DNA from: a virus
Lineage: Duplodnaviria; Caudoviricetes
Strand: one strand, 5' to 3'
Length of the DNA stretch: 64,000 nucleotides
Virus record (IMG/VR): IMGVR_UViG_3300011616_000001
Span: 20,730-84,729 of that record
Part shown: piece by piece, positions 1,707 to 17,954 of the stretch
Layout of the letters: each line of letters starts with the position of its first letter
Numbering within the stretch: the first letter of the stretch is position 1
Made by a program: the position numbers and the translations under genes
The notes under the pieces: model-generated
Database searches by the model: none
Told to the model about the DNA's origin: nothing
Seen by the model: the letters and a program-made list of their open reading frames with translations, nothing else

Positions 1707-3020
1707 ATGGTAACTATAGTTTATGGTATTTTTTCAGTTTTAAATGCATACTCGGCATACCTATTTATTGATAATTGCTTAGGCAGAAGAAGAGCCACTA
1801 ACAAACAGATATTGTTAGGGTATACACTGTTTTACATAGTAGGGATATTTGCTTTTGTGAAAGGTGCTGGCCCATACACAAACTTGTTCATGACTTTAGC
1901 TACGTATTATTTGGTGGGAAGACTTTACATAGCTACTGAAAAGAAAAGGGTGATAACCGCCTTATTTCTATATGTTCAATATTTAATGTGCGATGTGTTT
2001 GTTTTTACAACCATGTCAACTATACTTCAAGAATTTCCACAAAGATCACCAATGCCTCTTACTGAAGAGTTGCAGAATTCAATTGGAATTATATTTGTGA
2101 TGGTTTTGCAGTTCTTTGTGATTAAAGCTATTACCCCGTTACATAAAGAGAGAAATATTGAGCTGCCTCTCAAGCACTGGATTACACTATTTACTATTCC
2201 TGTAGTCAGTGGAATAGCCGTAGTATGGGTAAATCAACAGTACAAGATTGGTGGAATAACTAATTTGCCACTCATCTATATTCTTATCGCAGCTTTTTCT
2301 TTAATAAATGTAATTGCTTTCTTCTTTTATGATCAAGCATATCAAAGTGTTGTAACGAACCATGAGAAAGATGCTTTAGCACAAAGTCATGACAATCATC
2401 AAAAAGAAGCCGCCCTATTGCATCAGTCCTTGGGAAAAATCAGTGCAACGAAACACGATCTGGACTCACATCTTACTACCGGAATGGGTATTGCCATAGA
2501 GCAGAAAAATGATGAAATGATAGCTTATTTTGAGCCGCTAGTAGGAGAAATAAGAAATATTGAAACTGGCATAAAAAGTGGTAGTCCTACAATTGATACA
2601 ACACTCAATTCCTGTTTGTACACAGCCAGGGATCAAAATACTCAATTACATATTGATCTTAAGATGAAGGAAGAGATACCCATTAACCCTATTGATTTGA
2701 CAACCATTTTAAGCAATCTTTTGAATAATGCTCTTGAAGCCTGTATCAAACTCCCAGAAGGAGATCGGCAGATATGGTTTTATCTGAAACACGAAAGAGG
2801 TGTTTTAAACGTCAGAGTAAAAAATACATATAATCCAGATGCGGTTGATATTCAGGACGGCAAGGCCCATACCACAAAAGAGGATAAAAGTGCCCACGGG
2901 ATTGGTCTAAAACGAATTCAGCAGACTGTAGAAAAATATAATGGAACGTTTTCCTATCGTGTTAAGGCAACTGAGTATGGTAACATATTTGAGGCTAAGG
3001 CTATGTTGTTTACAAAATAG
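1707..3020 (+). CDS. AgrC/VirS-like membrane sensor histidine kinase (GHKL)
   Basis: About 6 hydrophobic N-terminal segments, H-box KHDLDSHL, N-box NLLNNALEAC, G-box TTKEDKSAHGIGLKRI. Confidence 0.9.
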   Translation: MVTIVYGIFSVLNAYSAYLFIDNCLGRRRATNKQILLGYTLFYIVGIFAFVKGAGPYTNLFMTLATYYLVGRLYIATEKKRVITALFLYVQYLMCDVFVFTTMSTILQEFPQRSPMPLTEELQNSIGIIFVMVLQFFVIKAITPLHKERNIELPLKHWITLFTIPVVSGIAVVWVNQQYKIGGITNLPLIYILIAAFSLINVIAFFFYDQAYQSVVTNHEKDALAQSHDNHQKEAALLHQSLGKISATKHDLDSHLTTGMGIAIEQKNDEMIAYFEPLVGEIRNIETGIKSGSPTIDTTLNSCLYTARDQNTQLHIDLKMKEEIPINPIDLTTILSNLLNNALEACIKLPEGDRQIWFYLKHERGVLNVRVKNTYNPDAVDIQDGKAHTTKEDKSAHGIGLKRIQQTVEKYNGTFSYRVKATEYGNIFEAKAMLFTK

Positions 3021-3060: not shown

Positions 3061-6000
3061 TTAACGATGTCTCGAAGTTGGTTTTCCGATTTGCTGCATT
3101 ACTGCGGCACGGAGGCCACCTTTTAAAATTCCTTCAGCAAGTTGGTCAGGGTTATCACACCTTTCGATTTTGATATCACCGAAGGTGAAAGTTGTAGAGT
3201 CACCAGATCCTCTTGTAGACAACTGTCCTTGATCGAACGTTGGTGGAATAAAATGAGAAATAGGGGCAGCAGCAGCTGAGAGATTTTTCAGTAACATAGC
3301 TTGCTGATCATCATTTAGCACAGCTTCGCCACGATGGGCGATGATTGGGACTGCATTGTTGATATCTTCAATTGGCTGACTCGAGAATAATCTGAGTAAT
3401 CGTTCACGCTTTGTTTCGTTGCCTGTACCGACAAGTCCATTCTCAATACCGTCAGCATAAAGATCGTTCTCGATAGGTATAGAGTCATTACCATAACCAG
3501 AAAAGATATCATTTAATGAACCACCCCAGTTACCCCAAGGAGAATCATCATCATCGTCGTCATCATCGCTGCTCCGTCTACTGTTCATTTCGTCCAAAGC
3601 ATCTTCAAGATTATCACGGACATCTTCCAGAATATATTTGATATCATTGACATCAGTGGTTAGCTGTTCCCAACTGGTCATATATTCAGAAATCAGCCCA
3701 GCATTCTCATTATATTGCCTGAATGAATCGATCAATTCTTCACCGGCAGTGATAAGTGCATCCTGAACAGTGGTTAGGATACTGTCTGCGTTGGCCTCGG
3801 CCCCAGTAGAAGCGGAGAGGAAGTCGAATACATTGTTCAGATTATCCATGCCGGACATCTTTTGATTCATTTGGGATAAGAGATCATTGATACCAGCAAC
3901 CGCCTGATCATAGGTGATAGTACCTTCCTTGTAGGCGGCAATATAGTCATTGAGCAGGTTATAGATGTTCTCGGTTGATTCGATCTGATCTTCATACTGA
4001 GTCATCTGATCAGAAAGAGTTTGATACATTCCGGAGAACATGTCGTAGATATCGTCATCTTTGCCGCTTAGGACTTTATCCTTCCAACCTTCGCCCAGAA
4101 TGTCGCTGGTAGCTGCTTCGTTCTTGGCCTGTTCGATTTTGTCTGCAATCTCTGACCACTTTTCGGAGATCTTTTCCAGAGAATCAATCTGTTCTTCGTA
4201 GCGGTCGTTGACTGCATCGAGTTCATCTTGGAGACCATCGATCTGCTGCTGAAGATTATGCTTTTCGAGATTAGCTAGTGCATCTTGTAGACTTTCTTGA
4301 GCGTTTCTGAGGTTTTCAGCATTATTTTCATATACCACTGTGCCCTCTCTTATTACCCGCTCCGTCTTCTGAGTATTGGCAGAATGAAGATCATAAAGCG
4401 CCTGTTCGTAAGCAGTCTGTAGCTGAAGCGCTTCATTCTGCTTGTTCAGTAATTCTAACCGCTCATTTAATACATCAATCTGAGCCTGATTCTTTTCTTT
4501 CTCCAGATCACGCTCTTCTTCAAGCAAATCAATCTGCTCCTGGATAGCATTTGTGACGGTTGAAATGACCGATTCATACTCGCTCTGTACCTTAGACATA
4601 GCATCTAAAGCTTTCTGCAAAGCGGAAGAGTAGTCGTTAACGGTGTCCAGAGGAATCTGCAGCATTGCTTCATTCCATTTGTGTAGATTTTCGATCATTG
4701 CGGACATTTCGGCATTGATAGACTGCATCTTGTCATAAAGTTTATTCCAGTTCTCGGAGCCTTCATCGTACTCATCCATTACATCTTGGATCAGACCGAT
4801 CTGTTCCTTATACTGGTCAATGACCTTCATGCCGTTATCGATAAGCATCTGGTAATATTCTCTATCAAGCTTTTTGCCCGATGCCTCCATTTCGGAACCC
4901 CAGCGCTCCATCGTATCCGTAATGGAGTTGATCATGTTCAGGATTACTTCCATGTTCTCAATTGGGAGATTCAGCAGCTGGTCTTCTACCTCAGCAATAG
5001 CTAAGTCAAGACCGGCCATATCCTCTTCCCAGCCTTCGATATCAGACATGATGTCATGATAGTCTTCGTCATCCGGACTAGCGCCTAGCTCAGCAAGTTT
5101 CTTCTTTGCTTCTTTGATTTTCTGTTCATAAAGGGCGATAAGCTTTTTATTATTTGCAATTACCTGTTCATACGATTGAGAGCTGACTATCTTACCCTGA
5201 GCTACAAGCAACTGGTTTTGAGCATCAATCTTGGCATTAGTAGAAGTGATCCGGTCAGCCTGTTTATCAAGATACTCTATGTTATTATCATAATAATTCT
5301 TGATGTTTTCGGCAGCTTCGGCTTCTAAATCGTTTTTCTCTTTGACCGTATCTTTGAGTTTATCATGAGCCGAAATTGCCGCCTCAATGTCCTTGGCTTC
5401 GTCACCGGAGTAGCTACTAATCTCAATAGAGCCGTTTTCAATTTTGTCACGGATTTCTGGAGCGAGTTTATTGACCAGTTCTTCGTATTTACGTTGATAC
5501 TCCTCGATAGCGGTCATATAGGTTTCAAGATGGATCTTATCAGCTTCGATGATCTGAGCTAGTGCGGATCTCCGGGATTCACTATAGTTTTCGCCATTGT
5601 AAATCATTGCGAAGAGATCAGCCATGGACATTCCTGCATTCTTGGCGATTTCTTGCAACTCTACCATGTCGGTGGTTATAGTAGAACCGTTGGCTTCAAT
5701 GAGTTCTTTGGCGCGGTCGAATTCCTCTTGGGTTAGACCGAGATAGGACATTGCGGCGTTAGATGCATCTTTTTCTAGCTCGTCCCTCTGATCCTTTAGT
5801 ATTTCAAGCAGGCGCTCGATCCAGTCAATTTCTGTTTCTTTGTCCTTGTCAGACTTGGATTTAGATTTGGACTTAGAAGAGTTGGCGTTGTTGACTCTAT
5901 CCACGTTTTCTTTTGTCCAGCCATAATTAAGACCATTAGCAAAAGCATTACCTTTAGCAAAAGCTTTGCCACGAGAACCAATTTTCCCATTTCGCTGTAG

Positions 6001-9000
6001 CTGCTCAGTCTGTTTGTGATTAAATATTATTGCATCTTTGGGTTTATCAATAAACTCAGCTCCGTTATCACCAACAGTATGATATGTTCCGCTGTGTGGG
6101 TCGACAATGGTTTCTTGTCCTAACTCTCCAACAAGGACTTTCTTTAAAGCTTTTCGATTCTTAATTCCTGAATTGCCGTTCGCATAAGCAGTTCCATAAG
6201 CACCAGCAGCACTTTCTTCACCGATACCTTCAGAATCTCCGGTGACCTTAGCAGTAGCATTAACATGAATATCTGCTAATACGCTTGGTAGTGCTTTGAT
6301 TGCGGTTGCTAGATCGTCAACCTTTTTCTTCGCACCGTTTGCATCGGTTCCAACACCCTCAAGACTATCCCTGGTTTTAGTTAGCTCAAGTTTTCCTGCC
6401 TCACTAATAGCATCAGTCAGGGTGTCAACAGAGACTTTTGCATCATCGGCTTCCTCGGTGATTTTTAGAAGCCCAGCTTTTTCGGTGTCTATTTCGAGAG
6501 ACTCAATACGTCCAAGGGCCTCTGTTAAGTCGTTGATCGGGACTAAATCTGCCGTTTGGAAAGACACTCCCTCAAGCATAAGCATTTCAGTAAGAGCCGT
6601 CTGAACATCTTCCTTGCTCTGACCAAAATCCTCCATCAATCCTTTAATTAAGTTATCGATATCAATATTGCCAGTTTCTGCATCAATCTTGATAAGACCA
6701 AGTTCTTTCAACTTCTCCATGTTGGCTCTGATCCGTTCTTCATTACCACTGGTCTCGAAGTCAATTAAAACTGTAGTGTCCATCTCAGCAACTTCTCCAA
6801 GAATCTGATGAATTTGCTTGCCGCTGAAACCTAATTCCTCAAGATACCTCTCCAGCGTTTGCATACTCATTACGGATTTGCCATCGAGATCTTCCATAGA
6901 AAATCCAACTAACTTGAATGCTTCAGCCAGTTCTTCGACATTGTACTTGACTGTACTACCGTTGATTTTGGACGCTTCTAAGAACTCAAGAAAAGCCTCT
7001 TTGGAAATGCCAATAGCTTTGGCGACTTCTTCATATTGAGTGGGATCGAGGTTGAGTTCAAAACTTCCGTCCGACAATAATTGAGCAGAAGAGTTTAATT
7101 TCTCTAAGACACCGCTTTTCTGAAGATCTAACAGTGGGTTCATGATCGCTGCGCCGTTATTATCAGGATCACTCCATAGCGACTGGAATTTCTTGACCTC
7201 GGCCCTTGCCGCATCAAGATCCATGTCATAAGAGCGGTCACCAAAGAAATATTCAAGGAGTCCTTCGGTATGTTTGCCGAAATCACCTTTTTTTAGATTC
7301 TCCTGCAATGTCTTGAATTTCTCGGTAGAGTCAACGTAGCTATCGTTGTAGTCATCTTCACCCAAGACTTTATTTAACTTGTCTTTTGCTTTAGCTACGC
7401 CATGCATTTCGTTGTCTAACCCACCAAGAACTTTACTTAAGAGAATACCGGATTCGGTTAAGCTTGCAAATCCGTTTTCGCCATTGGCGGTTTTCTGGAG
7501 AGCAGTTGCTAAGTATTCGGCAGATGCTCCGGTCTCGTATAGAAGATGAGCCAGGACCTCGTTTTCCTCAGCTAATTCGACGACTCTATCTGCTGTGATG
7601 GAACTTGCATCTCCAAGGTCTTCAATGCTAGCGAAGTAGTCTTCGACATCAGAATCACCAAGTTTTCCTATTTCTTTCTGCTTGATCCCCATGTCTTCAA
7701 GAGCAAAGATAACATCATCAATTGTTAACCCATACTCTTTTCCGAGTTCAATTAAGTCTTTGAATGCATTTTTACTATTTGGATCTTCAGCCAATAACTT
7801 AAGCTCTGTTGTGCTTTTTTTACCAAATACATCTGTTAATGAACTGGCTGATAAATTACGTTTATAATTACCAACAATAGATCCAACACGATCAATCATA
7901 TTTGTGTTTGCTGATAAATCGATGTTGGCAATTGCTGCACTTGGATTTTTAAGGGCGTATTGAAAATCATGAATCTGGCTGCTGGCTTTGTCAAATACTC
8001 CTTCGATAACGGATTCATAGCCTCTCCATTTGCCTTCAGTCAGATCAATGGAATTTCTAACTTCTCTTAGATTGTCGTGAGCCCCAGTAATATCTTCTTT
8101 TGTGCCGGATGTGAGGGCCGTGTTGTAGCGGGTTACCGCTTCGGCGGCCAGATTGTAGTCTTCAGCCAGACTTGATGTGGTCATGACTATATACAGTTTC
8201 TCATCTTCAACGATATCTTTTGTATTGCCCATGACTTCTTTAACAACATCTAATCCAGCACTGCCACCTTTTAAAATGCCAGTCATGTCTATTGATGTTC
8301 CAATATTCTCAGATTCAAACTCCTTTTTGACTGCTCTTACTTCAGTCATGAAGTCATTAATTATTTCTTCAGCATTTTCAACATCAGCATCTAAATATAG
8401 CTTGTAATAACCTTCGACTGCGGTAGATTCAGTTCGAAGACCCTTCTTTCTGTATTTTGAGACAATCTCATCTACCATTTTACCGTCATCATTGTTACGG
8501 TTATAGCCATGCAGCGCGAATGTTCTTTTTTTGTAATACTCATCTTTGGCGGTGTTGATATCATCTTCTTTGCTATTCAACCAGTTCTCAGCCAACTGTT
8601 TATTTAGTTGAGTGATTACTCCCAGCTGATTAGCATATGCATTTGTGACCAAATCAATTTTGCCGTGCTCTTCACCATACTTATCATTTAACTCAGTTTG
8701 CAGTTTAAGAAGTTCGCTTTTGATTTCGAACTGTCTTTCTTCGGTAGTATTAGCCGCAGTCAATTCTTTGTAGAGCGTTTTGTATTTTTCTGCTGTATCA
8801 TTGATTGATTCTTGCTCAGACCTCAGTGCTTGTAACGAGTCGTTGGCCGCGTCAATTGATTCTTGACGTTGCTGTTGATATTGTTTGTAAGCGATAGCTG
8901 CACCGGCGACTACAACAATTCCAGCAGTGAGGGCTGCGGTAAGTGTAGCAGCAGCGGCAGTACTGATTCCCATCTTTGCAGCAAGGGCTGTGTGGAGGTT

Positions 9001-9315
9001 GGAGAGGGTAACAGTGACACCTTGGTTGGTGATCTTTGCACCAGTGTTAGCATCGGTCGCAATAGTGTTTTGTGCTTCGGCAACTGTCAGGCCGGACGTA
9101 GCGAGAATGTCGCCTTCGGTGCTAGCAGTCACAGCAGCCGTAGAAAGTAGCAGCGATTTTTTTTCTGCATCAAGAAGTTTTGATGATAATACTAGTTTTT
9201 GTTGAGAAGCATCCAGTGTGTCAAATAAAGCAGCAGCTCTCGTTATATTGTTTATATCTTCATTGCCCATTAGTGTATTGATTACACTACCCACACCTAT
9301 TAGATTTTTAATTTG
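3061..9315 (-). CDS. Tape measure protein, exon 3 (2084 aa)
   Basis: Long Ala/Leu/Glu coiled-coil ORF with AYANG...LVGELGQE and IIAHRGEAVLN motifs seen in siphophage TMP C-termini; no SD before the TTG at 9318; first 18 nt pair with the intron 2 guide. Confidence 0.85.
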   Translation of the reverse strand, partial: QIKNLIGVGSVINTLMGNEDINNITRAAALFDTLDASQQKLVLSSKLLDAEKKSLLLSTAAVTASTEGDILATSGLTVAEAQNTIATDANTGAKITNQGVTVTLSNLHTALAAKMGISTAAAATLTAALTAGIVVVAGAAIAYKQYQQQRQESIDAANDSLQALRSEQESINDTAEKYKTLYKELTAANTTEERQFEIKSELLKLQTELNDKYGEEHGKIDLVTNAYANQLGVITQLNKQLAENWLNSKEDDINTAKDEYYKKRTFALHGYNRNNDDGKMVDEIVSKYRKKGLRTESTAVEGYYKLYLDADVENAEEIINDFMTEVRAVKKEFESENIGTSIDMTGILKGGSAGLDVVKEVMGNTKDIVEDEKLYIVMTTSSLAEDYNLAAEAVTRYNTALTSGTKEDITGAHDNLREVRNSIDLTEGKWRGYESVIEGVFDKASSQIHDFQYALKNPSAAIANIDLSANTNMIDRVGSIVGNYKRNLSASSLTDVFGKKSTTELKLLAEDPNSKNAFKDLIELGKEYGLTIDDVIFALEDMGIKQKEIGKLGDSDVEDYFASIEDLGDASSITADRVVELAEENEVLAHLLYETGASAEYLATALQKTANGENGFASLTESGILLSKVLGGLDNEMHGVAKAKDKLNKVLGEDDYNDSYVDSTEKFKTLQENLKKGDFGKHTEGLLEYFFGDRSYDMDLDAARAEVKKFQSLWSDPDNNGAAIMNPLLDLQKSGVLEKLNSSAQLLSDGSFELNLDPTQYEEVAKAIGISKEAFLEFLEASKINGSTVKYNVEELAEAFKLVGFSMEDLDGKSVMSMQTLERYLEELGFSGKQIHQILGEVAEMDTTVLIDFETSGNEERIRANMEKLKELGLIKIDAETGNIDIDNLIKGLMEDFGQSKEDVQTALTEMLMLEGVSFQTADLVPINDLTEALGRIESLEIDTEKAGLLKITEEADDAKVSVDTLTDAISEAGKLELTKTRDSLEGVGTDANGAKKKVDDLATAIKALPSVLADIHVNATAKVTGDSEGIGEESAAGAYGTAYANGNSGIKNRKALKKVLVGELGQETIVDPHSGTYHTVGDNGAEFIDKPKDAIIFNHKQTEQLQRNGKIGSRGKAFAKGNAFANGLNYGWTKENVDRVNNANSSKSKSKSKSDKDKETEIDWIERLLEILKDQRDELEKDASNAAMSYLGLTQEEFDRAKELIEANGSTITTDMVELQEIAKNAGMSMADLFAMIYNGENYSESRRSALAQIIEADKIHLETYMTAIEEYQRKYEELVNKLAPEIRDKIENGSIEISSYSGDEAKDIEAAISAHDKLKDTVKEKNDLEAEAAENIKNYYDNNIEYLDKQADRITSTNAKIDAQNQLLVAQGKIVSSQSYEQVIANNKKLIALYEQKIKEAKKKLAELGASPDDEDYHDIMSDIEGWEEDMAGLDLAIAEVEDQLLNLPIENMEVILNMINSITDTMERWGSEMEASGKKLDREYYQMLIDNGMKVIDQYKEQIGLIQDVMDEYDEGSENWNKLYDKMQSINAEMSAMIENLHKWNEAMLQIPLDTVNDYSSALQKALDAMSKVQSEYESVISTVTNAIQEQIDLLEEERDLEKEKNQAQIDVLNERLELLNKQNEALQLQTAYEQALYDLHSANTQKTERVIREGTVVYENNAENLRNAQESLQDALANLEKHNLQQQIDGLQDELDAVNDRYEEQIDSLEKISEKWSEIADKIEQAKNEAATSDILGEGWKDKVLSGKDDDIYDMFSGMYQTLSDQMTQYEDQIESTENIYNLLNDYIAAYKEGTITYDQAVAGINDLLSQMNQKMSGMDNLNNVFDFLSASTGAEANADSILTTVQDALITAGEELIDSFRQYNENAGLISEYMTSWEQLTTDVNDIKYILEDVRDNLEDALDEMNSRRSSDDDDDDDDSPWGNWGGSLNDIFSGYGNDSIPIENDLYADGIENGLVGTGNETKRERLLRLFSSQPIEDINNAVPIIAHRGEAVLNDDQQAMLLKNLSAAAAPISHFIPPTFDQGQLSTRGSGDSTTFTFGDIKIERCDNPDQLAEGILKGGLRAAVMQQIGKPTSRHR

Positions 9316-9337
9316 CAATACATCATATATGCTGAAG

Positions 9338-9366
9338 TTGTTAATCTTTAGCTTATATGCTAGAAT
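9338..9366 (+). promoter_or_regulatory. Sigma-A-type promoter for the antisense Zn-ribbon gene, overlapping the intron 2 3' end
   Basis: TTGTTA-17 bp-TAGAAT with extended TG; RBS GGGAGG 9374-9379. Confidence 0.65.
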
Positions 9367-9387
9367 TTAAAATGGGAGGTAATAAAA

Positions 9388-9753
9388 ATGGAAACAAAAA
9401 AAGAAGACTACGTTATTGTCACAGGAGAAACTGAATTAAAAGCTTTCGATAAAGGGAGAAAGATGTTTGATCCTTCTATCTCAGGTTATTTTAAGTGTGA
9501 AGTTATATCAAAGACTGATACAGAAGCGACTGTTAAGGTAATTAAAGTTCCCCCACTTACCCCGGCAGAAGCGGCAGCATACAGGCAGTCACTATCATTA
9601 CCACCAATAGTCACCTGTCCCTACTGCAAATCAACAGACACCAAAAAGATATCGGGCCTATCCAAAGCTGGATCAGTCGCTGTCTGGGGAATCTTTGCTG
9701 CTGGGAAGGTGTCGAAGCAATGGAAGTGTGGGAAGTGTAAGAGTGAGTTTTAG
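9388..9753 (+). CDS. Zn-ribbon protein with hydrophobic hairpin (intron 2 cargo, antisense)
   Basis: CPYC...GSVAVWGIFAAG...WKCGKC; own promoter and RBS. Confidence 0.75.
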   Translation: METKKEDYVIVTGETELKAFDKGRKMFDPSISGYFKCEVISKTDTEATVKVIKVPPLTPAEAAAYRQSLSLPPIVTCPYCKSTDTKKISGLSKAGSVAVWGIFAAGKVSKQWKCGKCKSEF

Positions 9754-9755
9754 GC

Positions 9756-9809
9756 AAATAAAAAGAGTGCTGTAAAATAGCCAAACAATCAGTTATTTTA
9801 CAGCACTCT
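9756..9809 (-). terminator. Intrinsic (probably bidirectional) terminator inside intron 2
   Basis: Perfect 16-bp stem 9764-9779/9794-9809, followed on the minus strand by UUUUAUUU. Confidence 0.8.
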
Positions 9810-9875
9810 ATTACTATTTAAATGATATATCAGATATTGGATAAATCGAAGTAGCATTATAATACCATTCATTAT

Positions 9876-10124
9876 TTAGTGATTAATAAGAGGAGTGTTT
9901 ACAACATATTCCTTAAAATTATCAAATATTAGACCTAATTCTACCCAATAGCTGACTAATCTGAGCATTCGTTGTGCTTCTGGCTCTACACCTAATTCAA
10001 TTAATTTTTTAGATATTGTATCGATTGTGAAACGTCCACCGGGTTGTGACAAAGCAACATTATATACTATAAGATCATAGTCGCTTCCTATATTGCTGCT
10101 ACGTTTAATTAACATATTACACAT
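9876..10124 (-). CDS. Small protein, possibly winged-helix (intron 2 cargo)
   Basis: RBS AGAGGGG within the end of the HD gene; pattern FTIDTISKKL...VSYWVELGLI. Confidence 0.6.
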   Translation of the reverse strand: MCNMLIKRSSNIGSDYDLIVYNVALSQPGGRFTIDTISKKLIELGVEPEAQRMLRLVSYWVELGLIFDNFKEYVVNTPLINH

Positions 10125-10129
10125 GGCAA

Positions 10130-12220
10130 TTACCCCTCTTGTTTAATATTTTTATAGATATCTATTTGATTATCTAAAGTAGTTATTATTAGATTAACTG
10201 CATTTTTGGCAATTTCTACTCCGACACGATTTAAAAACTTGTCAAGATCCAAGTTCCTTTCATATTTCTTTGGTAAAATATAAATGTAAAATTGAGGGAA
10301 AGTATTATAACCCAAATTTAATACATTTCTAATTGAACTTATCTCATGAATAGAAACAACATTCTCTGAATTCTTCTTTTGGCTATGAAACATAATTGGT
10401 TTGGTTAATCCGTTATTATATTTCTTTATAACACAGACTACGTCTTCAATCGAATTTCCCAAGGCTTCCTTACTTTTATTTACACTCTCTTTTATTGCAG
10501 GATTTAAACCAAAAGGTTTTATAGAATACAATATCTTTATACTATTAAATATTAAGCCCTGAAATGTGTTTGAGTCGTTTTCGTAGTTTTCTGTAGCTGA
10601 ATAGAAGACAGAAGCAACATCTTTTAAAAAAGGATCAATTGGAACTTTTGGTGAACTTCCCGATTCTTTATCACTTAAATTTTGCAAGGATTTAATCTTA
10701 CAATCTATGATTTCTTTATTGCTCATTAATTCATTTAAAATTGCTTTATCAATAATTAAGAAATCTTCTAGTCTTTTTATGACCGAAATATAGTACCGTT
10801 TATTCATTAAAAGTTCTTTAAGCTGTTTTGTTAAGTAATTATCTGGATTGCCAATATAATTGCTGAAAAAATGCTTTTTTAATACAGTCAACAACCAAGA
10901 GTCATCCCATTGCGAAATTGCATAAGAACTTTCAACACCAGATATAGGTTTTAAAGCTTTCCACAACCCAGATATGTCATTGGGCAATAAATCAGAGTAT
11001 TTCTCTTCTGCAATTTCGGCTACCTCCTTCGCAGGTATTCCTACTTCCATTGTAGCTGCAGCTTCATTGTCTTCTTCTGGCATATCTTTATTCAGTTTAT
11101 CTTTCAAATATGCAATACTGATATTGGTAATTACATTTTGCATCAAATAATCCGTTTTAACCGCATGATGATGAAATATTATATTTTTATAAATACCCCA
11201 TCTTCGTTCAAGAAAATCTTCCACTGTATTAACCACTTTTATACTTGGACAAAATAAATAATTTCGTTCTTCTTTATTAGTTTTGGCGCTTGTGATGTCT
11301 GCTTGAACAAGTTTCATACTACTAAATAACCTATCGTATTCAATAGTGCCTTTTTTTAATCCTGAGTTATATGCATCTCTTGAAGAGTAGTCAAGTCGAT
11401 CACCATCTAATGATCCATCGATAATAGCATGTATATCTTCAAAATCTTTCTCGGTAAAAATATCACAGGCAGTTCGAACGATCAAAACTTCAAATAATTG
11501 TTTATTATATATTTTTGCATTACTTGAATCACTTTCGTCAATATTATCGACCGAATCCCGTAAAATTCTTTCAGAAATCCTATTCCCCATTTGTTCGTGT
11601 AGTTTTTGTGAACCTGTCCCATTAAATGAGTTCATAATTTTAATGAATTCATTCATTTTAGGGGTTTTATCAGTTATCCCTGATATTATTTCTTTTACAT
11701 CTTCTAATGCAAATTCTGCTACATGACTATATGGTGGATGCCCAATATCATGTAATAGAGCCGCAACTCTAATAGCTTCATGAAGAATTACATATGTCGA
11801 TTGATGATCAAGTGCATTTTTGGGCATATTGAAAAAATTATCAAACTCTTTTGGAATTTTTGGGATTTTTGCTGTACGAAGTTTTTCAAGGCGTTCCCCA
11901 AATTTATTCGCAAATTTATCTAATGCAAGGTTAGGTATTGATTTATTGAGCTTATCTTCATAATGCACAAAGAAATTTTTTGCATGTTCGGGATTAGCAT
12001 TTTTGATTGAATTATAAAAAATATTACTACATAAATGCATTGTACCTATACTGTGTTCAAATCGTTTTGTCCTATTACATGGAAAGGTCATGTATACAGT
12101 GGAATTTTGATACACATCATGAAGTCGGTTAAACATAACATGCGATAAGACTTTTCTTTCCAAATTAGTTAATTCAATATTTCCATGAATACTATCTGCT
12201 ATGATGCCCCTTTTAGCCAT
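10130..12220 (-). CDS. HD-superfamily phosphohydrolase, SAMHD1/dNTP-triphosphohydrolase-like, with long C-terminal extension (intron 2 cargo)
   Basis: IADSIHGNI, FNRLHDVYQN, RFEHSIGTMH, ALLHDIGHPPYSH, LDGDRLDY, IYKNIIFHH motifs. Confidence 0.9.
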   Translation of the reverse strand: MAKRGIIADSIHGNIELTNLERKVLSHVMFNRLHDVYQNSTVYMTFPCNRTKRFEHSIGTMHLCSNIFYNSIKNANPEHAKNFFVHYEDKLNKSIPNLALDKFANKFGERLEKLRTAKIPKIPKEFDNFFNMPKNALDHQSTYVILHEAIRVAALLHDIGHPPYSHVAEFALEDVKEIISGITDKTPKMNEFIKIMNSFNGTGSQKLHEQMGNRISERILRDSVDNIDESDSSNAKIYNKQLFEVLIVRTACDIFTEKDFEDIHAIIDGSLDGDRLDYSSRDAYNSGLKKGTIEYDRLFSSMKLVQADITSAKTNKEERNYLFCPSIKVVNTVEDFLERRWGIYKNIIFHHHAVKTDYLMQNVITNISIAYLKDKLNKDMPEEDNEAAATMEVGIPAKEVAEIAEEKYSDLLPNDISGLWKALKPISGVESSYAISQWDDSWLLTVLKKHFFSNYIGNPDNYLTKQLKELLMNKRYYISVIKRLEDFLIIDKAILNELMSNKEIIDCKIKSLQNLSDKESGSSPKVPIDPFLKDVASVFYSATENYENDSNTFQGLIFNSIKILYSIKPFGLNPAIKESVNKSKEALGNSIEDVVCVIKKYNNGLTKPIMFHSQKKNSENVVSIHEISSIRNVLNLGYNTFPQFYIYILPKKYERNLDLDKFLNRVGVEIAKNAVNLIITTLDNQIDIYKNIKQEG

Positions 12221-12975
12221 AACCCCTCACTTTTGTAATAACAGTATGTAAAATGTATTGTATTTACTTGAAATCAAAAAATGCTTAGTACTGTTATACG
12301 CGTAGTTTTTTCTATATATTACCATATATGCTGTGTTTTTTCTATAACTTTATTATTGTTTTAATTATTTTATATCATTCTAATTACAATTTATCAAGCG
12401 GATTTTATCATATTTAGTCAACTTATCATTGATAAAAAAATAATAAATTGCATTTTTAAAGGTTGTCTATTTTTCTTTAACAAACGACTAAAAATAGTAA
12501 ACAAGCCGCCTGACCTTTTCTAGCAAGGATTATCAGAGAGTCAGAAAACTCCAATAATCACTATACCTTAAAAGCATTCCCAGTAAGGTAGGGGATACTC
12601 TGAGGATCGGTAGTCGTTGAACATCCATTCCAATTTAACCTGTTACTCCTTTTTAGGGGGATATTGGTTTCGTAGACCGTTGGAATGTGTGCTGCTAGTT
12701 ACCCATTGTCGTGTAGCACTTAGGACGTATTTGCATACGCTTGTATTTCACCTTATGCCAAACAACCCGTTTTTTCTGCTTTCGCCGCATATCACGTTTA
12801 TCATTGCTGATTCCGTTGTAGCCGGGATGTTGTTAGGGGATTCAAGCAATTACTCCTCATGACGTTTATTTTAAAACTCCGTCTACACATAATTGTACTA
12901 TGAACCATGCTATCATTTCCTTTTATGTGCGTGCCCAAATTAAAAATCTAATAAAATACCCTTCTTTCAGGGTTA

Positions 12976-13327
12976 AGCGAAGTTTTTGAAAAGTTTGAAG
13001 CCGCCCAGTCCTGCTAGGAGAGGAGTCAGGACGCCGACTTCTTTGACAATTTGTGTTAGGACATTGACGAAGGCTGTGCCACCATCAACAAAGTTTTTTA
13101 GGAAGTCTGAGCTTATTGCCGTTTGAGCAAGGCCTTGGAACGCGGCCTTCAGTCTGCCCAATCTAAATTCGAGCGATTCAGCATACCTGCTCTGTTCCTC
13201 CATAGCTGATCCGGAGGAATTCTTTGAATCGTTATAGGCTTTTTCTACCTGTCCGGATTGGAATGCCTTGATAAGTGCTGCGATTTGGTTACCACGCTGT
13301 TTACCAGCAATTATTTCGAGTAGGTCT
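12976..13327 (-). CDS. Tape measure protein, exon 2 (352 nt)
   Basis: Encodes DLLEIIAGKQRGNQIAALIKAF...SAMEEQSRYAESLEFRLGRLKAAFQ...FKNFA, continuing the TP901-type TMP core of exon 1. Confidence 0.85.
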
Positions 13328-15119
13328 CATTTTGTTCCGCAAGTTCATAACGCTTGCGAGTTATTGGCTTATTCTATAGTTGATTAGGCTATAGATGGTA
13401 TTTCTTTTATAATATTGAGTTTTACAAGTTCATCAAATAGCTTATATTCAATATCATCATAACAAGTAATTCTTATTAAGTATATTTTATTCTTGCGACA
13501 ATAATCGTCTTTTATATTGTCATGGCTTACAGTTTTGGAAAATGAGTTCAGCCCCCAAACTGGACGAAAATGTTGTTCTCCGTCGAATTCTATTAAGGTG
13601 TTATACTCTGGCAGATAAAAATCAAAGGGTAAAGGTCTTTTATCCTTGCAATCTTGGTATTTTTTTTGAGTTTCAAATTGATAGCCCCATTTATCCAACA
13701 GATTACTAATTTGTTTCTCTCCCCAATAAAATCTGCTGCATTTGGGACACGATTTACCTTTTTTAACCATGTGACTAGCATGGGATAGGTATATAAATCC
13801 GCATAATTTACATTGAAGCTTTACATTATTTTTCATGCCATGATATTCTAAAACACTTATATTGGGGACTAAGCGAGTTACTTTTAGAGAAAATTCGTCT
13901 AGAGTCAAATAATTATGAGCGGAAAGTTTTTCTAATCCACATAAATAGCAACCCCTTCCATTTAAAATATCCTGCATGGACTTTGTTGAAATAACATTGT
14001 GCTTAATGCAACGGCATTTAATCCTGGCAGACAGTTTTGTATAAGGTTCCAACAATTGTACATTAGGATTTACTTCTGCGGCTTTTTGCATTACATATTG
14101 TTTGGGCAGCTGTCGCCCAAAACAATATTTACACCCCTTGATATCTCGTTCCATATTTTTCTGTTGCATAAGTTGTATACCAAAATCTTTATGTTTGTTA
14201 CAGATGAATTTAATAAATATAATGCCGTCCATTCTAATCGTATCTATGTATGTAAAATCCTTTGACTCAGCCAAGACCTTATGTTTTTCTTTGTCAAGTG
14301 CAATTCTTTTCTTATTTCCATTTGCAATTCGCCCGCAGTGAGGACACCCCTTTCCCTCCAATAGATGGCCGAGAGTAGTATGTTGTTCCCCAATTTCTTC
14401 ATGTATTTTGCATATATATTTTATTTTAGAACCAGCGTTGTGAAAGTCGGTTGCATCAGACTTGAGTATATAGTTCTTTTTTTCTATATAATGAACAACA
14501 TCATCAAATGAATACTTTTTGTTTCCGCTGGGCCTTTTCAATTTCATGTCTTTTCTCTTACAGGACACCGAGCTTAATGTTCTTGGGAAAAGAAGTACAC
14601 AAAGTTCTTCATCAGACATTAATTTCCAGTTATCAATAATAATTTGTTCTTCTTGTTTCGTCCATTTCAAGTTATCACCCTTGTACTATTTATTTTTTGT
14701 TGGAAGGTAATCAACCTCCATATCACGCCAATAACATCTCTGTGTTTCCACAGACGGTCAGACTATTTCTTAACCACACTCTTTCATATAGAAGAGTAGC
14801 AGTCACACCGTTTCCATTTAAGGGGTTCTCACCCATACCATTAATTTGTACCGTACTCCTATTGCCATAGATATGTATTCTCTGGTCTATGGCCCTTCAC
14901 GGGGATAGTCGTTTGACTCATTCCTATTCGGAACTTCGCGCCCAAGCTACCATTGTCACTCCACTTAGGATTTTGTCCATATGGAATCTCTGTCGTTGTT
15001 TCACTTTCGTTACCTTCATACCAGCATATTTCATCCGTATTGTGGTGACAGAGCTTTAGGTTTTACTGGGTTTAGATGTGTTGTTCTGTGCATATTTCTA
15101 TGCACACAGGCAGAACTTT
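13328..15119 (-). mobile_element. Group I intron 1 of TMP gene (1792 nt) with homing endonuclease ORF in P9
   Basis: Guide 15106-15117 matches the ligated exons at 11/12; P2 GAAA hairpin 15088-15105; P3 15075-15080/14804-14809; R UCAAACGACUA 14906-14916; S AAGAAAUAGUCU 14760-14771; P9 GAAA hairpin 14740-14753; terminal G at 13328; splicing gives EQA-DLLE in frame. Confidence 0.9.
13384..14670 (-). CDS. Intron-encoded homing endonuclease, Vsr/DUF559-like C-terminus with repeated Zn-binding modules
   Basis: N-terminal KWTKQEE Myb-like segment; repeated C..H/CPxC modules; C-terminal GEKQI..LL...LPFDFYLPEYNTLIEFDGEQHF. Confidence 0.85.
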   Translation of the reverse strand: MKWTKQEEQIIIDNWKLMSDEELCVLLFPRTLSSVSCKRKDMKLKRPSGNKKYSFDDVVHYIEKKNYILKSDATDFHNAGSKIKYICKIHEEIGEQHTTLGHLLEGKGCPHCGRIANGNKKRIALDKEKHKVLAESKDFTYIDTIRMDGIIFIKFICNKHKDFGIQLMQQKNMERDIKGCKYCFGRQLPKQYVMQKAAEVNPNVQLLEPYTKLSARIKCRCIKHNVISTKSMQDILNGRGCYLCGLEKLSAHNYLTLDEFSLKVTRLVPNISVLEYHGMKNNVKLQCKLCGFIYLSHASHMVKKGKSCPKCSRFYWGEKQISNLLDKWGYQFETQKKYQDCKDKRPLPFDFYLPEYNTLIEFDGEQHFRPVWGLNSFSKTVSHDNIKDDYCRKNKIYLIRITCYDDIEYKLFDELVKLNIIKEIPSIA

Positions 15120-16831
15120 GCCTGTTCAGTTTGAGAGATGCGATCCCAAACTTCTGCAATACCTTGTAGAATCTCATACGTTGAACGGAAATTTCCTTGG
15201 TCGTCAAATATGTTGACAGTCCCCATTGTCCGATTAAGGATCTGGGTTTGAATTTTTGATATGGAACCTACATTTTCATATTCTTCACCTAATTCTTCGA
15301 GGTTCCCCTTCATTCCGCGAATACGCATTGAGAGTATTTTTAAGCTGTTTCCTGTTTCTGACGCATTTTGAGTTATCTCTGTAGCACCGGTTAACATCGC
15401 CAAACTCTCATGAATATCGTTTCCAGCCATGTTGAGTGCGGCAGCAGAGTTTCTTAGCCCCTCACCTAGTGAAGCTGAATCCGTAGCAAATTTATTGCCT
15501 AAAATATTAAGTGAATCAATAATATCTATCGCATCCGTCGCTTCGATATTGAACGACTTCATGGCCGTGACCATATCACTTACAGCTGTAGCATCATCGA
15601 CCTCGCCAACGTTTGAGTATATGGAAGAGTACTCCGCGAGTACAGCTGATTCATCGACATTGAAGCCCAGCTTTGCCCAGTTAGCACTCTGAGTAACGAA
15701 ACTAGAAGTAGTACGCCCTAACTCCTGAGCTTTCTTGTTTGCATTATCAAGAAATCGAGAGTATCGCCTATCCGTCTCATCCGTAACTTTATAGAGGTTA
15801 GTCATTGCCGTATCAACTTCATAAACTGCCGAAACCATTTGCCTGATGGTTGTAATGGTTTTCATTATCACGGCTGTAATACCAAACCACTGACCAAACT
15901 TACTGGCCTGATCCTTGATACTATCCATAAATGACCTACCCAGCTTGTTTGATCGGCGGGCAGCACCTTCAATATTCACAAACCCCTGTCGTATTTCTTC
16001 TAATCGAGCCTTGGTGATCTGAGCACTTGAATTCAACTCATTTAAATATCCGTTTATCTGAGATCCATACGCTTTGACACCCATAGTCTTTGAGTTCTTG
16101 TCAGCAAACTCCTTGATCCTGTTCGTCAAATTATATCGAGACTGCTCAGAGGCAAGCTTGGTCTCGGCAGTGGTTAACTGTTTTACCTCATTCTTGACCT
16201 TAGCCAACACCTGCTGATACTCTTTCCAGACTGCAACCTTATCCTTTTTGGTCAGATTGGTATTCAGTTTTTGACTGAGTGAAATGAGTGTTTCATAGTC
16301 CGTCTTTAGTCCGGGTGGGATGGCAGCAGTCGCCAACGAATTGTAATTTTTTGAAGCCTTGGATACATCTGAAGACACTTTACTTTGAGCAATAGCCTTA
16401 TTAATTTTCTGTATTTTTTGATATTCGTCATCTAATGCCTTATTAGCGGCCCTGTTTTGAGCTGTAGCTTGTCTCTTTTCCTCGGCTCGTCTTGCTGATT
16501 CGGTGGCTTCTCGGACTCTGCCCATAGCGTTGATCAACTTGTTTTGGGCTTTATCTGCTTTTTCCGCACCAGAGACCGCTTGCTTATAAAATTCTTTAGC
16601 CCATTGATTAGCCTCTTTACTTGAGACCGCATCGCCCATCAAATGTTTTATTTCCTTGCTAAGCGTGCTCACTTGATCGCGTACACTCTTTTTCGATTTA
16701 GCAAACTCCTCTAAATCAAGAGTTGCACTAAGTTTTACTTTCTCCATTAGAAGCTGTTTTTGAATTGCTGGTATACTTTTAGCATCAAGTTTAGCTTCTA
16801 ATAAAATTCTAAAATCTGAATTACTTCCCAT
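15120..16831 (-). CDS. Tape measure protein, exon 1 (570 codons + 2 nt)
   Basis: RBS AAGGAG; TP901-type core VYEVDTAMTNLYKVT...WAKLGF...GNKFATDSASLGEGLRNS...GNSLKILSMRIRG; the track ORF runs a few codons (KFCLCA) into the intron. Confidence 0.9.
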
Positions 16832-17113: not shown

Positions 17114-17162
17114 TACAAAATAGAATCCATATGTACAAAATAGAGGTTTATATGTACAAAAT
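17114..17162. promoter_or_regulatory. Candidate LytTR-binding direct repeats
   Basis: ATATGTACAAAAT at 17129-17141 and 17150-17162 (21-bp period), third partial TACAAAAT at 17114-17121. Confidence 0.55.
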
Positions 17163-17902
17163 CAGGACAGCATAAAATTATCCACTTCAAAATATTCTTC
17201 AATGCTTTTTCTGAAACTCTCATAGTAAGGAGGCGTAACTGGTATCTCTTCCTCGCCAATAAATACCTTGTTGTGGCTGAACGATGTAACATACACAAGG
17301 TTGACCAAATAGCTTTTATGTATACGAACAAAGTGTGGATGTATCCTTTTCACCTCGTCTTCAAATACATCCAACTTTTTATAGATTTTATACGGAAAAA
17401 ATTCTCCATACTTGAGCATAAGTCTTGTGGCTCGGTGATTGAAGGTGGCATATTTTACCTCATTTAAATCAACCTTATAACCAACCTGTTTAAAACTGAC
17501 TAAATAGAACCTTTTTACAGATGCATTCAATTCGGATATGACTTTTCTCAATACACTATTTACGTCATCTTGCAATAGTGGTTTAGTTAAAAACCCAGTA
17601 GGATCAGCATTTGCCACATCCATAGTATTCTTGGCGTTTGCATAAAAGGAGATAAAGATCATCTTTGTATCAGGATATGATTTCTTAATGAACCTAGATA
17701 CGTTTGTTCCCCTTTCATTTTTACCGATCATTACGTCCATAAAAATGATATCGAATTTCTTCTCCTCATTAAGATATTCAATCAACTTACTGCCCAAATT
17801 AAAATACTCAATGTGCAATGGCTCCTCAAATGGATATTTCTCTATGTACTTTATTAAATCCTTGATCTCACTCTTTTTATCGTCACATATTGCTATATTC
17901 AT
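17162..17902 (-). CDS. AgrA/VirR-like response regulator (REC + LytTR)
   Basis: MNIAICDD, FDIIFMDV (phospho-Asp), GFLTKP, and LytTR motif HFVRIHKSYLVNL. Confidence 0.92.
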   Translation of the reverse strand: MNIAICDDKKSEIKDLIKYIEKYPFEEPLHIEYFNLGSKLIEYLNEEKKFDIIFMDVMIGKNERGTNVSRFIKKSYPDTKMIFISFYANAKNTMDVANADPTGFLTKPLLQDDVNSVLRKVISELNASVKRFYLVSFKQVGYKVDLNEVKYATFNHRATRLMLKYGEFFPYKIYKKLDVFEDEVKRIHPHFVRIHKSYLVNLVYVTSFSHNKVFIGEEEIPVTPPYYESFRKSIEEYFEVDNFMLS

Positions 17903-17954
17903 ATCTATATGATAACGCTTCGTCACGGAAAAGGGAATAGATTATTTTTGGAAG

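Follow-up and report, generated by a model that had tools for sequence, protein, structure and literature searches.

The subject of this report is a pair of genes carried within the tape-measure protein (TMP) gene of a phage. The DNA analysed, called the window here, is a stretch of 64,000 nucleotides (nt) forming part of an 84.7-kb IMG/VR virus record (IMGVR_UViG_3300011616_000001), a metagenomic contig estimated to be about 70% complete. By TMP sequence, the relatives of the record are SPbeta-like Bacillus phages and phages of Thomasclavelia and Enterocloster. The first gene of the pair encodes an HD-domain protein and the second a small protein predicted to be a winged helix, and both lie in the second of two intervening sequences that divide the TMP gene. 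A sequence-only reading of this DNA had proposed that the pair is an intron-borne defence or superinfection-exclusion module, and each element that it described is present where it was placed (Table 1).

The pair is compactly organized. The partner gene starts 5 nt past the HD stop codon, and its ribosome-binding site, GAGGGG, sits within the end of the HD gene, in keeping with the tight coupling that had been claimed. The GC content is 0.30 for the HD gene, 0.32 for the partner gene, and 0.25 for the upstream spacer of about 320 nt, versus 0.42–0.47 for the TMP exons; that is, the module is AT-richer than its surroundings, as had been noticed. The terminator read beyond the partner gene is likewise supported, by a hairpin of −27.2 kcal/mol (z −6.6, fold against shuffled sequences) followed by a U-run on the minus strand. 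From this reading of the sequence, expression of the module independently of the TMP operon is plausible.

The interrupted tape-measure gene

The TMP gene is seen in the window as minus-strand open reading frame (ORF) pieces at 16831-15098, ending at 12973, and at 9318-3061. The viral contig L138 encodes an uninterrupted TMP of 2,139 residues (L138:6360-12779), which is colinear with all three window exons. At the second junction, L138 has KNFEQLKN (…VKNFEQLKN…) where the window has KNFA|QIKN. In the window, …FKNFA runs into a stop codon, and QIKNLIG… resumes 3.66 kb on. Joining the exons after U12976 and before C9315 restores the frame, so that U12976 precedes the 5′ splice site and G9316 is the last base of the intron.

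The intron contains an 18-nt segment exactly complementary, in inverted orientation and over its full length, to the start of exon 3; no such match arose in 100 shuffles, and 0 are expected. The match begins precisely at the deduced 3′ splice site, about 3.6 kb away. As read from the sequence, a GGC that follows the guide can pair with the exon-2 end GCU (P1), plus UUG/UAA. On our reading, a group I internal guide, with P10 and P1, is laid out in just this way. The 18-nt guide is far longer than the usual P10 and probably helps the intron to locate its distant 3′ splice site. The 5′ segment of about 435 nt has a phage-like GC content and contains R- and S-like elements, and candidates for P3, P8, and P9 were read by hand. 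This 5′ segment is also 72.6% identical, over 113 nt, to the sequence interrupting the DNA polymerase III alpha gene in Lactococcus phage AM1. Colinearity with L138, the splice-site bases, and the guide together uphold the intron-borne location. We consider the group I-type setting of the module well supported by sequence, and we infer that intron 2 is actually spliced.

Several searches added little. RNAduplex on long stretches returned loop-rich, uninformative duplexes only. An IMG/VR pattern scan for the P4–P6-like stretch of intron 2 found two contigs, neither with HD cargo, and tblastn with the first 300 residues of exon 3 found no match in the GenBank phage collection.

The first intron of the TMP gene, 352 nt upstream of intron 2, is a second one of group I type and has the classical form: its gene encodes a 428-residue HNH/zinc-finger homing endonuclease (phrog_559, 1.9e-56), and in its core the DNA is similar to that of intron regions in Staphylococcus and Bacillus AR9/PBS1 phages. 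Joining the exons at CAG GC|A GAC gives QADLL, the sequence found in L138. An alternative junction after …AAG TT was rejected, as only CAG GC|A GAC yields these residues of the intact homologue. The deduced 5′ exon of intron 1 ends in C, not U.

Two features of intron 2 were absent from the sequence-only reading, namely the position of the terminator upstream of exon 3 and an antisense gene for a Zn-ribbon protein, the third cargo gene of the intron. This gene has a strong ribosome-binding site, and its product matches Pfam Zn_ribbon_PaaD (9.8e-6). Its C-terminal Zn-ribbon motif, about 45 residues long, recurs at identities of up to 80% in many small proteins whose N-termini are unrelated; the homologues number 146.

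In the ORF-bearing phage group I introns of the T4 td/nrdB/sunY type and in the IStrons of Clostridioides difficile, a long insert separates the ribozyme core, on its 5′ side, from a distant 3′ splice site. Intron 2 resembles them in its putative 5′ core, the U before the splice site, the terminal G, and a guide that can pair with both exons. It differs in that its cargo is neither a homing endonuclease nor a transposase, in holding two transcription units that converge and have regulatory signals of their own, in its unusually long P10 (18 nt), and in having a terminator inside the intron. The module can also be compared with prophage morons and defence hotspots, which it resembles in being AT-rich, accessory, and self-contained, and in having a promoter-like region and a terminator of its own. 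In contrast to these, it lies inside a self-splicing-type intron of an essential structural gene, not between genes. The sequence-only reading held that the intron protects the module; the location is explained equally well if the intron is simply a safe, splice-neutral insertion site.

Table 1. Positions in the window of the TMP exons, the two introns, and the elements of intron 2.
Feature	Positions	Strand	Basis or remark
TMP exon 1	15120..16831	-	PhageMin_Tail 1.9e-21; 51% identity to L138
Intron 1 of TMP	13328..15119	-	bears the HNH/homing-endonuclease gene of 428 residues, 14670-13384
TMP exon 2 (352 nt)	12976..13327	-	53% identity to L138 TMP residues 407-522; PHROG TMP match
Intron 2 of TMP (3,660 nt), group I type	9316..12975	-	colinearity with the uninterrupted L138 TMP
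Structured 5′ part of intron 2	12540..12975	-	GC 0.40; all upstream of the cargo; R-like GTTCAACGACTA, S-like AAGGTATAGT
Internal guide, 18 nt (P10)	12936..12953	-	exact complement of the exon 3 start
AT-rich spacer 5′ of the HD gene	12221..12539	-	GC 0.25; promoter-like sites
Extended -10-like TGGTAATAT	12324-12316	-	read in the spacer
HD gene, 696 residues	10130..12220	-	ORF; proposed effector, SAMHD1/EF1143-type dNTP triphosphohydrolase-like
Partner gene, 82 residues	9876..10124	-	ORF; predicted winged helix
Perfect 16-bp hairpin, terminator-like	9764..9809	.	between the convergent partner and Zn-ribbon genes
Antisense Zn-ribbon gene, 121 residues	9388..9753	+	ORF; Zn_ribbon_PaaD
Guide target, first 18 nt of TMP exon 3	9298..9315	-	exact inverted match
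TMP exon 3	3061..9315	-	ORF list; 33% identity to L138

The TMP gene is flanked by ORFs of 437 residues (1707-3020, +) and 254 residues (17162-17926, -). Elsewhere, the 84.7-kb record carries four tyrosine-recombinase genes (G000:C1 4816-5301, 6007-6480, 53508-54089, and 82241-82723). Because the record encodes these four recombinases, a temperate lifestyle of the phage is plausible.

The HD protein and its small partner

The HD protein matches Pfam HD with an E value of 1.8e-5, above the cut-off. It has more than 1,000 full-length homologues of 650–720 residues, the closest being P0002, encoded on an 81-kb ENA contig, at 56–59% identity. In 95 homologues, residues R53/E55/H56, H157-D158, G160-H161, S165-H166, and H208-E209 are invariant, as are D274/R275/D277/Y278/R281/D282 and R340/Y344/H350/H351. 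These include the metal-binding residues of the H…HD…D signature, H56, H157-D158, and D274 (or D277), and the HD signature is thus intact, as had been noted. The SAMHD1-specific residues (RFEHS, HDxGHxPxSH, the HE dyad, DxxDYxxRD, and the downstream R/Y/H) align with those of 2hek, 2q14, and SAMHD1. Run against the Protein Data Bank, the family profile matches 2hek (2e-29) and SAMHD1 (5e-19), as well as 2q14 and EF1143.

The AlphaFold2 (AF2) model of the HD protein has a pLDDT (predicted local distance difference test) of 87.9 and a pTM (predicted template modelling) score of 0.88, and Foldseek matches it at E values of about 1e-11. Structural alignment of this predicted model gives a clear ranking. 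EF1143 (2o6i) is first with Z 27.3 (394 residues aligned, model residues 1-667), followed by BT4208 (2q14) with Z 26.8, Aquifex O67745 (2hek) with Z 26.6, and human SAMHD1 (7ujn) with Z 24.8 (424 residues aligned, model residues 2-675). The Dgt-type dGTPases and CloA reach only Z 11–13 (CloA 12.3). Phosphodiesterases and PPX/GppA are at Z 8 or less, versus 23–27 for the best matches among deoxynucleoside triphosphate (dNTP) hydrolases, or dNTPases. The sequence-only reading had suggested a SAMHD1/dNTPase-like protein, and both the profile matches and the Z values bear this out. It had also described a C-terminal extension of about 350 residues as unrecognised, which needs correction: the structural alignments extend to residues 667 and 675 of the model, and this part is, in the model, mostly the C-lobe common to SAMHD1 and EF1143. 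An Atlas search also points to HD_assoc_2. Beyond this lobe, the model adds a long terminal helix and family-specific helical insertions; the insertions, at about residues 484-590 and 659-695, have no counterpart in solved structures.

The likeness to EF1143, BT4208, O67745, and SAMHD1 thus comprises the same predicted fold over about 360–430 residues and, in common, RFEHS, HDxGHPPxSH, HE, DGDRLDYxxRD, and R…Y…HH. The window protein differs from them in being about 200–250 residues longer, through the helical insertions and the C-terminal helix, and in lacking a SAM domain; identity is only 13–22%. Moreover, its gene is paired with a small winged-helix gene and is accessory and mobile, not a core gene. 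EF1143 is a characterised enzyme with demonstrated dNTPase activity (PMC3190883). Fold and residues support the HD protein as a SAMHD1/EF1143-type dNTPase-like enzyme, and it would be expected, on the model, to have dNTPase activity.

A winged-helix fold is predicted for the partner, whose AF2 model (pLDDT 82) has helices at residues 12-25, 34-43, and 50-63 and strands at 66-69 and 72-75, a predicted topology of H-s-H-H-β-hairpin, that is, three helices and a wing. The top Foldseek matches are all winged-helix domains (Fur, MarR, IclR, and the cullin WHB), with weak E values of 0.01 or more. Model topology and matches agree, as predictions, with the small winged helix-turn-helix protein proposed earlier. 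No family was found for the partner in Pfam at E < 0.01, nor in PADLOC, NCBIfam, or PHROGs. Partner proteins nearly all begin with Met-Cys (MCKV-like; window 10124-10119), and the first 11 or so residues are predicted to be disordered.

That the two genes form a module was examined in 48 other full-length HD loci, 45 of them from bacterial genomes and 3 from viral contigs. In 20 of the 48, the HD gene is directly followed by a homologous ORF of about 70–100 residues (hidden Markov model (HMM) E values of 1e-14 to 1e-30), where it overlaps the HD stop codon or starts up to about 120 nt beyond. In a FastTree tree of HD proteins, the partner-bearing loci are spread over most branches. The two-gene module that had been described is thus a recurrent one.

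Distribution, defence neighbours, and a second phage

Among 301 sampled genomes of one bacterial family, seven have an HD homologue (E ≤ 1e-30), and the flanking genes of the homologues vary between loci. The HD gene is therefore accessory and patchy. Homologues are not confined to housekeeping contexts, and several lie beside known or candidate defence genes. At one locus (L086), a complete Gabija system is upstream, with GajA (8.9e-210) and the UvrD-like helicase GajB. At another (L097), a gene for an OLD-type ATPase-TOPRIM protein is directly upstream of the HD gene, and at a third (L087), a GmrSD_N gene is 3 kb from it. On a 40-kb viral contig (L003), a PDC-S45 gene (2.9e-43) and a TIR gene are just downstream of the pair; there (L003:7980-14537), the pair is outside any TMP gene and forms a small defence cluster with the PDC-S45 and TIR-domain genes. 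In a second phage, L004, the HD gene is immediately preceded by an NsnA-like ParB-DUF262/GmrSD_N gene (1.1e-40); for Menshen, NsnA has been proposed as the sensor (PMC12065111). We regard these neighbourhoods as suggestive of a defence role, though not decisive. A metagenome scan yielded three more full-length HD loci, none adjoining a TMP gene. The idea that the HD enzyme excludes a canonical nucleotide on behalf of a modified-base genome was dropped, given that the module is widespread in bacterial chromosomes.

The second phage, L004 (IMGVR_UViG_3300029243_000215), is a 152.9-kb viral contig whose TMP gene is interrupted within about 10 codons of the intron-2 site of the window. The intervening sequence at this homologous site (L004:5805-12804; 7,000 nt) contains, in order, the NsnA-like gene, the HD gene, the partner gene, a perfect hairpin of 20 bp, and three antisense ORFs. 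The last of these, nearest the 3′ splice site, is a relative of the Zn-ribbon gene of the window (BLASTP 4e-7).

The splice details of L004 are our own reading of its sequence. A TAA comes right after the last sense codon (…SLD, gaT|TAA), as in the window. At 43 nt into the insert, GAUAA-GUCC could pair with the start of the next exon, UUAUC, and with the exon end, GGAU. A 20-nt stretch at 6214-6233 is complementary, at 85%, to 12805-12824, and the reading frame resumes after G12804. Rfam gave chance matches only on L004.

The HD proteins of L004 and the window are about 30% identical and far apart in the tree, and the TMPs are about 31–33% identical. Since the two phages are so distant, it would appear that the arrangement of intron and pair is either old or was assembled twice, and either way this argues for function. 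That the same arrangement is kept at the same TMP site although TMP and HD are only about 30% identical points to selection and not accident.

A proposed nucleotide-depleting cargo and its alternatives

That dNTPases can act against phages by depleting nucleotides is established (10.1101/2021.04.26.441389; PMC12265719; PMC13519002). We propose, with a probability of roughly 0.6, that the pair is a dNTP-depleting defence or superinfection-exclusion module carried as the cargo of a group I-type intron. An AT-rich promoter region of its own would drive expression of the HD enzyme. On infection by a competing phage, the enzyme would hydrolyse dNTPs to deoxynucleosides plus triphosphate, and the loss of dNTPs would starve the replication of the incoming phage, giving defence or superinfection exclusion. 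The coupled winged helix would be a regulator: it might bind DNA as an autorepressor, or it might be a subunit that holds the enzyme back or senses for it. The module would ride in the peripheral 3′ region of the intron, where a homing endonuclease usually sits, and the intron would cut the whole insert from the TMP message by way of the 18-nt guide to the distant 3′ exon, so that the phage could carry the module without losing its TMP. In this scheme, the timing of expression, the protection against phages, and the role of the partner are what we infer.

The proposal has precedents as to mechanism. The Dgt-type antiphage dGTPases (Tal et al., 10.1101/2021.04.26.441389; Vdg, PMC13519002) and CloA of Clover (PMC12265719) are nucleotide-depleting effectors, and the window pair would resemble them in using an HD-superfamily dNTPase to that end. 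Clover also provides an example of a dNTPase effector that can be restrained by a partner gene (PMC12265719). The window HD protein, however, belongs to a different branch of the superfamily from Dgt and CloA, with low Z values and HMM matches limited to the HD motif, and its partner is a predicted winged helix of 82 residues, not a nucleotidyltransferase of the CloB type. A literature search found no report of an HD plus winged-helix pair, nor of defence cargo in a group I intron.

A number of points weigh against the proposal. The structures on which it draws are all predictions. The HD protein falls outside the validated families of Dgt-type antiphage dGTPases: its match to the PADLOC dGTPase model (26.7 bits) covers residues 148-175 only and is far below the cut-off, and that to NCBIfam NF041026 is 21.3 bits versus a cut-off of 400. 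A dNTPase would threaten the phage's own replication, and therefore tight control must be assumed. As for expression, the extended −10-like site of the sequence-only reading is present in the spacer, but its standing as a promoter gains nothing from counts, as promoter-like matches in the region are no commoner than in shuffles (24 vs. 20.3 ± 4.1). Defence neighbours are found in only about 5–6 of some 22 partner-bearing loci (a raw count), and the remaining loci have ordinary neighbours, e.g., PGI, MatE, and an ammonium transporter. In one shallow clade, 21 HD homologues (L064-L102, from Anaerocolumna, Lacrimispora, Mobilitalea, and relatives) are without the partner; this clade may represent a domesticated or differently regulated form. 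With respect to the intron, the hand reading of P7 gives four clean pairs only, and Rfam, at gathering thresholds and at E ≤ 5, finds no intron family and no group I model in the window. Finally, the terminator-like hairpin is on the TMP sense strand about 450 nt ahead of exon 3 and could halt TMP transcription before that exon. Either late transcription has to get past it, or the joining of the exons has to come about otherwise.

Four alternatives to a defence module were weighed. The one that survives best, which we nonetheless consider improbable, is that the HD enzyme serves the phage's own lytic nucleotide economy, e.g., by resetting or skewing dNTP pools or by a late shut-off of host DNA synthesis, with the winged helix as its transcriptional regulator. 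Phages commonly encode enzymes of nucleotide metabolism, the gene is in the late structural operon and would be co-transcribed in the TMP precursor, and the fold, which says dNTPase, is silent on purpose. A role in phage replication is a poor fit, however, to a pair that is scattered in bacterial chromosomes at a prevalence of about 2%, in changing contexts and beside defence systems. Nor would it be expected of a module with its own AT-rich upstream region and its own terminator.

A little less probable still is that the pair is an addiction module of the toxin–antitoxin kind, in which a toxic dNTPase and a partner that neutralises or represses it would stabilise the carrier element and have no role in defence. 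The kept HD genes of the partner-less clade are difficult to reconcile with this, since an unopposed toxin would not be expected to persist alone, and a prophage or an intron has no obvious need of such a module. The gene order, a large enzyme followed by a tightly coupled small protein of DNA-binding type, and the mobile, patchy nature of the module are what one would look for in an addiction system. It should be added that toxin–antitoxin-like and abortive-infection defence functions are not mutually exclusive.

The third alternative concerns the substrate. HD-superfamily enzymes have many substrates, and with its helical insertions of no known structural counterpart, the HD protein might be a signalling or counter-defence enzyme with another nucleotide as its substrate, such as (p)ppGpp, NTPs, or a nucleotide used in immune signalling. 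We think this quite unlikely, given that all residues of the SAMHD1-type dNTPase site are invariant and that dNTPases are the best structural matches by a wide margin. Least likely of all is a dead end, in which intron 2 is unable to splice, the contig is an assembly artefact or a defective prophage with a broken TMP, and nothing can be read from where the cargo lies: the incomplete metagenomic contig, the strong terminator upstream of exon 3, the lack of an Rfam match, and a minimum free energy fold of the 5′ 521 nt of the intron that is no better than shuffles (z −0.31, a result uninformative on the ribozyme core) can be cited for it, but the three exons and every cargo ORF remain intact and in frame, a decayed element would not be expected to keep an exact 18-nt guide that begins at the splice junction, and the architecture recurs in the distant phage L004, where the ORFs are intact too.

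Returning to the defence module, it is tempting to go further and to propose that group I-type introns at one conserved TMP site of SPbeta-like phages carry interchangeable defence cargo, namely the HD and winged-helix genes in the window and an NsnA-like gene together with such a pair in L004, spliced out through long exon guides, and that the long SAMHD1-clade HD protein with its winged helix is a new nucleotide-depletion defence system. We put forward this wider proposal tentatively, at somewhat less than even odds.

To our knowledge, only the Dgt/CloA branch has so far been shown to act in antiphage defence. If the pair protects, the SAMHD1/EF1143 branch of dNTPases would join bacterial and phage immunity, a new kind of small regulator would be added, and the parallel with human SAMHD1 would be tightened. 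Phage self-splicing introns are known to us as vehicles for homing endonucleases, not for a multi-gene cargo with its own promoter-like region and terminator. The arrangement raises two questions, how a 3′ splice site 3.7–7 kb off is reached and how late transcription passes an internal terminator. If the wider proposal is true, the TMP site would constitute a defence hotspot of a kind not described before, with immune genes concealed by a self-splicing RNA inside an essential structural gene.

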